Positions 9,666 through 11,729 of a DNA stretch of 12,292 nt are shown piece by piece. Every line of letters begins with the position of its first letter. Within the stretch, counting starts at the first letter, position 1. Position numbers and translations under genes: made by a program. Source of the stretch: a virus (Duplodnaviria > Heunggongvirae > Uroviricota > Caudoviricetes); the IMG/VR virus record IMGVR_UViG_3300029060_000166; one strand, given 5' to 3'. Below the pieces are notes generated by a model, which saw nothing but the letters and a program-made list of their open reading frames with translations, did not search any database and was not told where the DNA came from.

Positions 9666-11729
9666 ATGACAGTAAAAATTTCTGGCGTGCTTAAAGATGG
9701 CACAGGAAAACCAGTACAGAACTGCACCATTGTGCTGAAGGCCAGACGAACCAGCAGCACGGTGGTGGTGAACACGGTGGCCTCTGAAAATCCGGATGAA
9801 GCCGGACGTTACAGCATGGATGTTGAGCATGGTCAGTACAGCGTCACCCTGCTGGTTGAAGGTTTTCCGCCTTCACATGCCGGGACCATTACCGTCTATG
9901 AAGGTTCCAGACCAGGTACGCTGAATGATTTTCTCGGCGCCATGACGGAGGATGATGTTCGTCCGGAGGCACTGCGCCGTTTTGAGCTGATGGTGAATGA
10001 AGTGGCACGTCATGCCGGAGCGTCATCACAGAGTGCAGCGGCGGCAAAGAAATCCGAAACGGCAGCAGCCTCATCGAAGAATGCGGCGAAAACCTCAGAA
10101 ACGAATGCAGCTAACAGCGCACAGGCGGCAGCGGCCTCGCAGACTGCATCGGCAAACTCCGCGACAGCAGCCAAAAAATCAGAAACCAGCGCGAAAAATA
10201 GCGAGACAGCCACAAAGGCCAGCGAAAAAAACGCAAAATCCAGCCAGACGGCAGCGAAAACCAGTGAGACGAATGCCAAAGACAGTGAAGCCAACGCAAA
10301 GGTGAGCGAAACAGCGGCGGCGAACTCGGCGAAAGCATCGGCAGCAAGCCAGACGGCAGCAAAAGCAAGTGAAGATGCTGCCAGAGAATACGCAAACCAG
10401 ACAGCAGAGCCGTACAGATATGTTTTACAGCCGCTGCCGGATGTGTGGATACCCTTTAATGATTCGCTGGATATGATTACGGGCTATTCTCCGGGTTATA
10501 AAAAAGTGAAGATTGGTGATAATGTGGTTCAGGTTGCCAGTGATAAACAGGTTAATTTCAGTCGCGCATCAACGGCAACATATATCAACAAATCTGGCGA
10601 ACTGAAAACGGCGGAAATTAATGAGCCACGATTTGAAAAAGAAGGTTTATTGATTGAAGGTCAGCGAACCAACTACATGTTGAATTCAGCAACTCCAGCT
10701 TCTTGGGGTAAATCTGCAAATATGAATGTCGCTGAGGTTGGAACTGATAGTTTTGGTTTTACTTATGGAAAGTTTGTTTGTAACGATTCTCTGATTGGGC
10801 AAACGTCAGCCATTAATATGGCATCAATTGCTGCTACAAAGTCAGTTGATGTTTCAGGCGATAACAAGTACGTGACAACCTCATGTCGTTTTAAAACAGA
10901 ACGACAGGTAAGGTTGCGTATCCGCTTTGATAAATATGACGGTAGTGCAACAACTTTTCTTGGTGATGCATATATTGATACACAAACGCTTGAAATTAAT
11001 ATGACAGGTGGCGCGGCCTCAGGGATTACAGCGAGAGTCAGAAAGGACGAAGCTACCGGATGGATTTTTGCAGAGGCAACAATCCTGGCAATTGATGATG
11101 AGTTAAAAATAGGATCTCAGATACAGTATTCTCCTAATCAGGGCGGAGCAACCGTATCTGGAGACTATATTTATCTGGCCACCCCTCAGGTTGAGGATGG
11201 TTCGTGTGCATCATCTTTTATTATCTCAGGAACGACGGCGGCTACCCGCGCAAGCGATATAGTTACAGTTCCAATTAATAATAATCTTTATAATCTTCCT
11301 TTTACGGTTCTTTGTGAGGTACATAAGAACTGGTATAAAACGCCAAATGCAGCGCCACGTGTTTTTGATACCGGCGGTCATCAAACCGGAGCGGCTATTA
11401 TTCTTGGCTTCGGATCTTCGGCAGATGGGCCAGACGGATTTCCTTATTGCGATATTGGTGGATCAAATAGGCGTGTTAACGAAAACGCATCGTTGAAAAA
11501 AATGGTTATGGGGATGCGTGTAAAGTCAGATCAGTCTACATGTGCAGTAAGTAACGGGCGTATATCCAGCGAAACAAAAACCACATGGGAATATATCCGG
11601 AGTACAGCAATCATTCGCATTGGTGGACAAACTACAGCAGGATTACGCCATTTATTTGGGCATGTGAGGAATTTTCGTCTCTGGCATAAAGAGCTAACAG
11701 ATGCGCAGCTTGGGGAGGTTGTGGAGTGA
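9666..11729 (+). CDS. stf: Side tail fibre protein (687 aa), mosaic: lambda Stf-like N-terminal domain, low-complexity repeat spacer, non-lambda C-terminal putative receptor-binding module
   Basis: N-terminal ~110 aa (MTVKISGVLKDGTGKPVQNCTI..GRYSMDVEHGQYSV..GFPPSHAGTITVYE..GTLNDFL) matches the N-terminus of lambda Stf as I recall it. An Ala/Ser/Thr/Lys-rich repeat region follows, then a lower-GC C-terminal half without the His/Gly-rich repeats of lambda Stf. Confidence 0.88.
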   Translation: MTVKISGVLKDGTGKPVQNCTIVLKARRTSSTVVVNTVASENPDEAGRYSMDVEHGQYSVTLLVEGFPPSHAGTITVYEGSRPGTLNDFLGAMTEDDVRPEALRRFELMVNEVARHAGASSQSAAAAKKSETAAASSKNAAKTSETNAANSAQAAAASQTASANSATAAKKSETSAKNSETATKASEKNAKSSQTAAKTSETNAKDSEANAKVSETAAANSAKASAASQTAAKASEDAAREYANQTAEPYRYVLQPLPDVWIPFNDSLDMITGYSPGYKKVKIGDNVVQVASDKQVNFSRASTATYINKSGELKTAEINEPRFEKEGLLIEGQRTNYMLNSATPASWGKSANMNVAEVGTDSFGFTYGKFVCNDSLIGQTSAINMASIAATKSVDVSGDNKYVTTSCRFKTERQVRLRIRFDKYDGSATTFLGDAYIDTQTLEINMTGGAASGITARVRKDEATGWIFAEATILAIDDELKIGSQIQYSPNQGGATVSGDYIYLATPQVEDGSCASSFIISGTTAATRASDIVTVPINNNLYNLPFTVLCEVHKNWYKTPNAAPRVFDTGGHQTGAAIILGFGSSADGPDGFPYCDIGGSNRRVNENASLKKMVMGMRVKSDQSTCAVSNGRISSETKTTWEYIRSTAIIRIGGQTTAGLRHLFGHVRNFRLWHKELTDAQLGEVVE
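10020..10390 (+). repeat. Degenerate in-frame tandem repeats inside stf encoding a KxSETxA-like Ala/Ser/Thr/Lys-rich spacer
   Basis: Recurring nucleotide units (aaatccgaaacggcagc / aaaacctcagaaacgaatgc / aaaaaatcagaaaccagcgc / agcgagacagccacaaag / accagtgagacgaatgcc / gtgagcgaaacagcggcg) encode repeated K-x-SET-x-A motifs. The three overlapping phantom ORFs in this span (9997-10305 +, 10010-10294 -, 10111-10395 -) are artefacts of this low complexity. Confidence 0.7.

Follow-up and report, generated by a model that had tools for sequence, protein, structure and literature searches.

A mosaic lambdoid side tail fibre with a predicted tandem jelly-roll tip and a linked 92-aa reading frame

The side tail fibre gene, its attachment domain and its stalk

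We analysed a stretch of 12,292 nucleotides (nt) from a Caudoviricetes virus (IMG/VR record IMGVR_UViG_3300029060_000166), hereafter the window, focusing on a side tail fibre gene (stf) and on the modules that compose its product. The open reading frame (ORF) list in combination with Pfam annotation revealed that the window comprises the tail-gene end of a lambdoid prophage, in which a tape-measure gene H truncated by the window start is followed by M, L, K, I, J, lom, and stf. The position of stf downstream of J and lom is the one expected of a lambda-type Stf. The features discussed below are collected in Table 1.

The encoded protein is far from rare. Its full length matched PHROG 1419 ('tail protein'), and the C-terminal 437 amino acids (aa) alone produced a further match to PHROG 5939. 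When these 437 aa were used as a query, a cluster of 182 member sequences (P0004) was recovered with 100% identity over 100% of the query; the cluster is named 'prophage tail fiber N-terminal domain-containing protein', the same name that PGAP gives to the stf product. By scanning 5426 complete Escherichia coli genomes with megablast, we found some part of the stretch 9666-12292 in 3335 of them and a coverage of at least 80% of this stretch in 501, with the best match being 98.7% identical. Hence, stf is an ordinary, very common, and already catalogued E. coli prophage side tail fibre, for which an identical protein exists in public databases. It is not novel in its build either, as phage 21 has the same fibre architecture and the first of the two tip domains described below (D1) is already an NCBIfam model. 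The mosaicism of tail fibres through the swapping of distal modules is itself textbook knowledge.

Table 1. Coordinates of the genes and features of the window discussed in the text (window positions, nt)
Feature	Position	Strand	Remarks
J	5155-8847	+	1230 aa; six J-specific Pfam domains; upstream of stf
lom	8915-9514	+	PF06316, E 1e-119; between J and stf
Terminator-like hairpin	9618-9647	+	between lom and stf; 13-bp stem and T run; consensus scan only
stf-type side tail fibre gene	9666-11729	+	687 aa and stop; ORF list, translation
Lambda-Stf collar/attachment domain	9666-10058	+	aa 1-131; solved core aa 1-94 (nt 9666-9947)
Ala/Ser-rich heptad-repeat stalk	10017-10415	+	aa 118-250; about 18 heptads
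Conserved start of mobile module	10431-10556	+	aa 256-297; begins PLPDVWIPFNDSL; beta strands in predicted model
D1, first predicted jelly-roll domain	10557-11297	+	aa ~298-544; 'GTA head spike fibre' family
First hypervariable patch, central D1	10656-11255	+	aa ~331-530
D2, second predicted jelly-roll domain	11298-11726	+	aa ~545-687; Laminin_G_3/ConA-like
Second hypervariable patch, D2	11376-11645	+	aa ~571-660; varies independently
Shine-Dalgarno-like GGGGAGG	11712-11718	+	8-14 nt upstream of GTG, inside stf end
Conserved acidic 92-aa partner ORF	11726-12004	+	GTG start overlaps stf TGA stop (GTGA)

At the N-terminus, residues 1-131 matched PF08400 (E 4.2e-68; 227.9 bits, the cutoff being 26.6), and the solved collar of lambda Stf (PDB 9e7m_Ta) aligned with residues 1-94 at E 1.4e-47. 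A count of the alignment showed that 82 of its 94 positions are identical. At the DNA level, identity with lambda stf amounts to 83% over ORF nt 1-389 and then ends. An earlier reading of the same DNA (the first-pass annotation), prepared from the letters without database searches, had limited the lambda-like portion to the first ~110 aa; the lambda-like character of the N-terminus stands, and its extent was slightly underestimated, ~130 aa being closer. In Ur-lambda, cryo-electron microscopy resolved Stf residues 1-94 as a six-stranded sheet plus a helix. The collar at the gpV/gpM junction is made of 12 such domains, and each of the four trimeric coiled-coil fibres is connected to three of them through flexible linkers (PMC12617516).

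The following segment, spanning residues 118-250, is composed of 34% Ala and 18% Ser, and consists of unbroken heptads in which Ala and Ser occupy fixed positions, 3 and 4 residues apart. Its self-identity exhibited z values of 8.4, 8.5, 7.3, and 7.7 at lags of 7, 14, 21, and 28, respectively (1000 shuffles), which bears out the repeat spacer noticed in the first-pass annotation, whereas Tandem Repeats Finder detected no DNA repeat in the stalk, the repeats being degenerate at the DNA level. This segment is most likely a trimeric coiled coil, and a coiled coil is also found at the equivalent position of lambda Stf (PMC12617516). Since the collar domain is common to both proteins and is followed by heptads, attachment and stalk are very probably organised as in lambda, with a shorter stalk and a trimeric state that we infer from the sequence. 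The stalk also displays an extreme AT skew of the coding strand (0.70 at 10051-10350) and harbors long ORFs at 9997-10305 on the plus strand and at 10010-10294 and 10111-10395 on the minus strand, which are artefacts of the repeat composition and not genes.

Downstream of the stalk the nucleotide composition changes sharply. The best single GC change point was located at ORF nt 789 (window position 10454, residue ~263), separating a GC content of 0.542 on the left from 0.426 on the right, while the other genes of the tail operon range from 0.55 to 0.61. As the GC content of third codon positions also falls across the break, from 0.52 to 0.32-0.38, the break is not merely an amino-acid effect of the Ala-rich stalk. 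The composition drop described in the first-pass annotation is therefore real. Among carriers with unrelated N-termini, the modal start of homology was residue 256 (nt 10431), 23 nt from the GC change point, and tblastn matches in other phage families begin at residues 1-7 of the module counted from there. The composition break thus marks the left edge of the globular module rather than the end of lambda similarity, which lies ~400 nt further upstream, at the anchor/stalk boundary near residues 118-130. In the earlier reading, the break had been equated with the recombination junction; it does coincide with a module edge, but not with the point at which the resemblance to lambda is lost. In a P2-type fibre (P0030) and some other foreign carriers, homology is already detected from residue ~118, in alignments that for the P0030 type are partly compositional, and the stalk may travel with the module or act as a recombination substrate. 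Because BLASTP without low-complexity filtering runs into the heptad stalks of unrelated fibres, starts between residues 118 and 245 may be partly compositional, and only the modal start at residue 256 was taken as the module edge.

The Ur-lambda Stf/Tfa locus and the window locus share the gene position after J and lom, a homologous collar, and an Ala/Ser-rich stalk that in the window is a probable coiled coil, but the stalk ends at residue 393 in lambda and near residue 250 in the window, whose Stf lacks both the hinge and the gp37-like distal coiled-coil/receptor-binding region. The window locus likewise has no tfa, the place of which is occupied by a 92-aa ORF. BLASTP of the stf product against the distal half of the lambda fibre (orf-314) returned no match, which, together with the end of DNA similarity at residue ~130, agrees with the early statement that the protein bears no resemblance to the lambda Stf C-terminus. 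The reported lambda Stf receptor, OmpC, cannot be transferred to the window fibre.

Predicted fold, relatives, and variation of the tip module

The module was modelled with AlphaFold2 (AF2) using 61 diverse representatives that share 26-86% identity (alignment A5). The resulting model reached a mean predicted local distance difference test (pLDDT) value of 93.8 and a predicted template modelling score (pTM) of 0.91, and comprises ~30 strands with no long helices; an earlier model built from 45 close homologues (85-97% identical) was discarded, its mean pLDDT being 37.8. Independent BFVD models of homologous coliphage fibres superimposed on the new model with template modelling (TM) scores of 0.91-0.96. 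The best non-phage matches in Foldseek were the tandem domains of laminin LG4-5 and galectin-8, which fits a two-lobed architecture, and the second lobe (D2) is supported by fold matches to LamG, pentraxin, CBM40, and BoNT HcN. The best structural neighbours are carbohydrate-binding, namely AbnA domain 4, CBM40, and the trans-sialidase lectin domain. The predicted model thus exhibits the concanavalin A (ConA)-like beta-jelly-roll fold, and the module is, as a confident prediction, composed of two tandem ConA-like jelly rolls, D1 and D2, the boundaries of which are hidden Markov model (HMM) and alignment coordinates rather than readings from a contact map. The lectin-like jelly-roll tip proposed in the first-pass annotation is accordingly retained in its Laminin_G_3-like C-terminus and amended in its number of domains, as the tip is predicted to hold two jelly rolls, of which D1 belongs to the NF048003 family.

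The D1 domain was recognised by NF048003 (NCBIfam 'phage head spike fiber domain', GTA_spike_fiber) with 55 bits against a cutoff of 36, in an alignment that pairs stf residues 329-529 with positions 1-181 of the 182 in the profile. In a single-sequence query, stf residues 298-544 also exhibited homology with Rcc01080, the head spike fibre of the Rhodobacter gene transfer agent (GTA) RcGTA, at E 6e-8, and the motifs RAS.ATY, PRFE, GLL.E..TN, and PQ.E.G..SS.I.T...TRA.D are common to the two proteins. It has been reported that tagged, fluorescent Rcc01080 attaches much more strongly to cells with a capsule than to mutants lacking one (PMC10218006). Several differences separate the two proteins. 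Rcc01080 is located on the capsid and not on the tail, as a single chain on a pentameric base, and it is anchored through an N-terminal (I/L)-G repeat (residues 2-10, IALGLGLGL) (PMC7296036), whereas the stf N-terminus is a lambda Stf collar; furthermore, the aligned part stops at residue ~286 of its 325 aa, and it appears to lack the Laminin_G_3-like D2. The two proteins share a domain without being orthologues. The Rcc01080 match in the PDB (6TB9) was dropped as fold evidence, the chain being resolved only at residues 2-10 (PMC7296036).

Over D1, a family profile also matched three phage proteins at E ~1e-10. Two of them, Pa193 gp46 (PDB 9B45) and E217 gp45 (PDB 8ENV), serve as wedge/triplex proteins in the baseplates of PB1-like Pseudomonas myophages, while the third is annotated as a gp17 tail fibre (9OCC). 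Pa193 gp46 and E217 gp45 are baseplate subunits that anchor a fibre (PMC10329688) and not a distal tip, and share only ~14% identity with D1; the paper on the E217 structure holds no description of a gp45 domain matching D1 (PMC10329688). In a separate observation, a representative of 4244 aa (P0300) matched the module in 7 separate stretches, the best of them covering module residues 46-284 (the D1 region), and appears to be a giant protein in which a D1-type jelly roll is repeated several times.

For D2, neither Pfam nor NCBIfam yielded a LamG or ConA match when the window protein was scanned, and its classification was reached through homologues. Laminin_G_3 (PF13385) was matched in 9 of 12 family members and, at E <= 0.01, in 37 of 62 diverse family members (best E 1.9e-11). 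The representatives P0367 and P0368 obtained 35.3 and 34.1 bits over their last ~140 residues, against a Laminin_G_3 gathering threshold of 27.6, and P0367 aligned end-to-end with residues 1-432 of the window module (E 4e-30), placing the Laminin_G_3 region at stf residues ~539-682. The C-terminal strand motif of D2 aligns with positions ~100-150 of the PF13385 profile, and no part of D2 is better conserved across distant homologues than the motif RIGGQ..G.RHLFGH(V/I)RNFR(L/I)W.K.LTD.Q. The C-terminal peptide quoted in the first-pass annotation is indeed present, and its terminal strand motif had been correctly recognised, given that homologues pass the PF13385 cutoff. Taken with the predicted fold, these homologues make D2 a probable Laminin_G_3-type domain, whose membership is transitive: it shares the predicted fold of the Laminin_G_3/ConA-like lectins (PF13385; CBM40, pentraxins, BoNT/TeNT Hc N-domain), but its sequence in the window lies below PF13385 detection.

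An exhaustive search of 50%-identity cluster representatives revealed 2873 relatives of the module at E <= 1e-3 and 78 at E <= 1e-30. The diversity of the family came from this search, as a profile of divergent phage copies returned almost only a 1H12-like prophage clade. In phage genomes, tblastn detected the complete module in 228 records. Its carriers include the lambdoid phages 21, mEp460, PhiR40_1, ev243, HannyBb, and 1H12; the Dhillonvirus members KarlBarth (62% identity) and tunus (80%); KMB46 of the Drexlerviridae (49%); the Tequintavirus (T5-like) phages L6jm (40%) and fp01 (27%), as well as HMD-P4; the Seuratvirus phiG7 (37%); and the Vequintavirus (rV5-like) myovirus LL12 (45%). More distant copies were found in the Rhodobacter phage RcapMu and in a Synechococcus phage. 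Pfam annotation of full-length carriers showed that the module is preceded by lambda-type (PF08400), P2-type (PF12571/PF03406), J-like (PF13550), or Tail_spike_N anchors. The same 430-aa module thus stands behind four kinds of anchor in at least six phage groups, which upholds the horizontal swap postulated in the first-pass annotation. Additionally, the record MG065676 ('Campylobacter phage A116') and several 'Listeria' or 'Campylobacter' records harbor a module ~44% identical to that of the window; the A116 copy has the same identity and score as that of FFH2 and stands at the same level as E. coli rV5-like phages, and these records are probably mislabelled or contaminated rather than instances of real cross-genus spread.

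The closest relatives of the whole fibre are those of coliphage 21 (UMO75437), PhiR40_1, ev243, mEp460, HannyBb, and 1H12, which exhibit the same architecture in 686-687 aa and, in phage 21 and its relatives, are followed by the same 92-aa ORF and then by the same small membrane ORF. Overall identity of the stf product is 70% to phage 21 and 91% to PhiR40_1. Two patches depart from these values: across residues ~331-530, identity is 37-70% to PhiR40_1 and ev243 against 80-100% to phage 21 and HannyBb, whereas across residues ~571-660 it is 20-30% to phage 21 against 97-100% to PhiR40_1, with conserved flanks. The two patches thus vary and recombine independently among alleles. A conserved frame around a variable middle in each jelly roll is what would be expected of ligand-contacting surfaces under diversifying selection. 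These differences from phage 21, PhiR40_1, and ev243 therefore make different ligand specificities likely among the alleles.

The lateral fibres of T5 and DT57C (Ltf, LtfA/LtfB) offer a functional analogy, in that an N-terminal anchor and a trimeric coiled coil carry an exchangeable O-antigen-binding tip, and fibres of this type are dispensable on rough hosts and essential on smooth hosts. Their tips end in a self-cleaving Peptidase_S74 intramolecular chaperone, which the window module lacks, having a separate small ORF instead. The DT57C LtfA/LtfB proteins were considered as the family of stf and ruled out, the Peptidase_S74 tip being a different module. The O16-targeting Dhillonvirus fibres of the BASEL collection (Bas85) likewise carry T5-like tips with an intramolecular chaperone and were uninformative for the window module.

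The 92-aa reading frame and the flanks of the fibre gene

The window conserves a small acidic ORF whose start overlaps the stf stop codon and which is preceded by a Shine-Dalgarno-like motif inside the end of stf; annotators of phage 21 placed a ribosome-binding site at the equivalent position. This arrangement suggests that stf and the 92-aa ORF are translationally coupled. The product matched PHROG 1361 (unknown function) at E 2.9e-39. It produced no significant match in Pfam (best E 0.078, below every gathering score), NCBIfam (E <= 0.1), or the PDB (best E 1.1), and no Tfa family was matched in the Pfam and NCBIfam scans. Homologues with 35-99% identity are found directly 3' of the module in lambdoid, Dhillonvirus, T5-like, and rV5-like loci. 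With an HMM of the 92-aa family, each of the 12 enterobacterial loci analysed, which come from six phage groups and include four left out of HMM building, proved to carry a homologue right after the module. The same HMM found nothing in the lambda locus, which has tfa, or in the RcapMu and cyanophage loci; in the RcapMu locus no 92-aa partner ORF was seen.

Given this linkage in 12 of 12 loci, the mobile cassette consists of the module plus the 92-aa ORF, the latter having been missed in the first-pass annotation. The encoded protein is most likely a folding or assembly factor, or otherwise a small structural partner, of the module. An alternative is that it is a virion adaptor that branches a second fibre, as in the DT57C LtfA/LtfB pair, and not a chaperone. 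Branched lateral fibres have been documented in T5-like phages (PMC4728585), and the small ORF is directly succeeded by another tail fibre gene in L6jm (4560-6290), fp01 (4116-6239), phiG7 (4090-5850), and HannyBb (5164-6195; coordinates in the fetched loci L008, L011, L010, and L004, respectively), an order that by analogy with DT57C suggests branched or two-component lateral fibres bearing the module. In the window, phage 21, PhiR40_1, ev243, and 1H12, on the other hand, no second fibre gene is present and a small membrane protein follows, while the small ORF is still conserved; the C-terminal module of LtfA/LtfB is, moreover, of the Peptidase_S74 type. We therefore regard the adaptor role as unlikely and as the weaker alternative to a folding or structural partner.

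The membrane-type product belongs to a third small ORF (12016-12292, running off the window end), which is hydrophobic. Its 95-aa homologue in PhiR40_1 matched PHROG 1443 (unknown function), and the phage 21 copy is annotated as a 'putative membrane protein' with a signal sequence and two transmembrane domains. This ORF follows the fibre cassette in the lambdoid relatives and not in the lytic phages, and may be a moron, for instance one that excludes superinfecting phages or masks a receptor.

On the opposite side of stf, the terminator-like hairpin between lom and stf ends ~18 nt 5' of the stf start codon, and a terminator is annotated at the equivalent position of phage 21. Late transcripts would have to read through this hairpin for stf to be expressed. 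A second strong hairpin with a T run was found at 8866-8885, so that the two bracket lom in a moron-like layout. Further upstream, the region 4801-5250 between I and J exhibits a low GC content of 0.41-0.46 against ~0.58-0.61 around it. It harbors an unannotated ORF of 113 aa (4833-5174, GTG start) that overlaps the J start and has no Pfam or PHROG match. Lambdoid phages, Stx-converting ones among them, conserve the DNA of this gap at ~91% but have nothing annotated there.

Probable role of the fibre and competing explanations

Together, these observations point to a lambdoid side fibre built of interchangeable parts, with a glycan-binding tandem jelly-roll tip and an accessory 92-aa ORF, a reading that as a whole we consider probable. 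According to this model, residues 1 to ~100 form a lambda-type collar that docks the fibre at the junction of tail tube and tip, as the homology to the solved structure indicates, and the Ala/Ser heptads of residues ~118-250 would zip three chains into a coiled-coil stalk. From residue 256 onward, the horizontally mobile, low-GC receptor-binding module would present its two predicted ConA-like jelly rolls, which may establish a reversible, multivalent, and non-enzymatic contact with a surface glycan (O-antigen, lipopolysaccharide (LPS) core, capsule, or enterobacterial common antigen). Such a contact would keep the virion at the cell surface while the central fibre J finds its terminal receptor. 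The 92-aa ORF, which is probably coupled to stf in translation, takes the place of lambda Tfa and travels with the module across phage families. The proposal of a glycan ligand also draws on the general behaviour of coliphage siphovirus lateral fibres, for which the primary receptor is typically O-antigen or another glycan (PMC8594841, PMC11990801). As for the first-pass annotation, the predicted fold of the tip is lectin-like, the GC profile is not flat, and lambda homology does not extend through the C-terminus, so its central proposal is left standing; the target that it named, LPS, O-antigen, or capsule rather than OmpC, is a conjecture.

Several points weigh against this interpretation. 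The window protein produced no match to PF13385 even at E 10. The AF2 model is that of a monomer, while the tip is expected on a stalk that is probably trimeric. Rcc01080 provides no experimental structure for D1, its PDB match supporting homology and not fold. The role proposed for the 92-aa product derives from gene linkage. The literature searched gives no ligand for any E. coli member of the module family, and that on the closest phages (the PhiR/ECOR13 set and KarlBarth) contains nothing specific on the receptor. Finally, a predicted ConA-like fold is not by itself proof of sugar binding, since protein binders (neurexin, laminin, BoNT Hc) and enzymes (GH16, lyases) are likewise found among the ConA-like domains.

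We consider the explanations that compete with the glycan-binding tip to be less likely than the latter. The tip could recognise an outer-membrane protein such as a porin, in the way that lambda Stf is reported to bind OmpC (PMC12617516); the protein binders among its structural neighbours (neurexin LNS, laminin LG, BoNT Hc) and the lack of a demonstrated glycan ligand within the E. coli family speak for it. Against a protein receptor, the nearest experimentally studied homologue, Rcc01080, binds capsule polysaccharide (PMC10218006), carbohydrate-binding modules rank first among the structural neighbours, the tip module is also carried by lateral fibres of T5-like, Dhillonvirus, and rV5-like phages, a type of fibre whose primary receptors are generally taken to be glycans, and nothing in it resembles the OmpC-binding distal region of lambda, so that we judge such a receptor to be quite improbable. 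The chances are smaller still that the module is a ConA-like hydrolase of the glucanase type or a lyase that degrades O-antigen or capsule in the manner of a tailspike, the enzymes of the ConA-like superfamily notwithstanding. Although many E. coli prophages are defective and lambda PaPa carries a frameshifted stf, we give hardly any credence to the gene being a decaying remnant of a cryptic prophage with no present function and an incidental composition shift, as stf and its neighbours H, M, L, K, I, J, and lom are intact, an identical protein occurs in a 182-member cluster and near-full-length copies are kept in 501 complete genomes, plaque-forming phage 21, PhiR40_1, and the Dhillonvirus KarlBarth share the architecture, and the conserved framework with variable patches is unlike random decay.

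Within the glycan-binding interpretation, a more specific arrangement can be tentatively put forward, and we hold it to be speculative: a collectin-like 'bouquet' in place of a canonical intertwined trimer, in which a trimeric Ala/Ser coiled-coil neck would carry three independent monomeric tandem-lectin heads, matured or capped by the 92-aa protein as a member of an undescribed accessory class. With two binding surfaces per head that evolve separately, such a fibre could have dual specificity. This arrangement is compatible with the single chain per spike of the RcGTA homologue, with the pTM of 0.91 obtained for a monomer model, and with the linkage of the 92-aa ORF in 12 of 12 loci. The cassette itself is common to lambdoid prophages, T5-like and rV5-like phages and, in part, gene transfer agents.

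These findings leave the current understanding of phage biology unchanged, and their practical value is modest. The fibre type is among the commonest in E. coli prophages, and the module is also present in lytic phages used in therapy and typing (T5-like, rV5-like, Dhillonvirus, and Drexlerviridae). It is useful for predicting host range and for engineering fibres that the lectin-like tip is a tandem module whose two variable patches can be swapped one without the other. As the 92-aa ORF always travels with the module, delivery particles based on chimeric lambda Stf would probably need this ORF alongside it. A testable lead on the ligand class comes, in turn, from the homology with Rcc01080, which binds capsule. 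Of mild interest are the tandem-lectin architecture, in which the two patches shuffle separately, the 92-aa ORF as its obligate partner, and the evolutionary relationship with the head spike fibre of the GTA.

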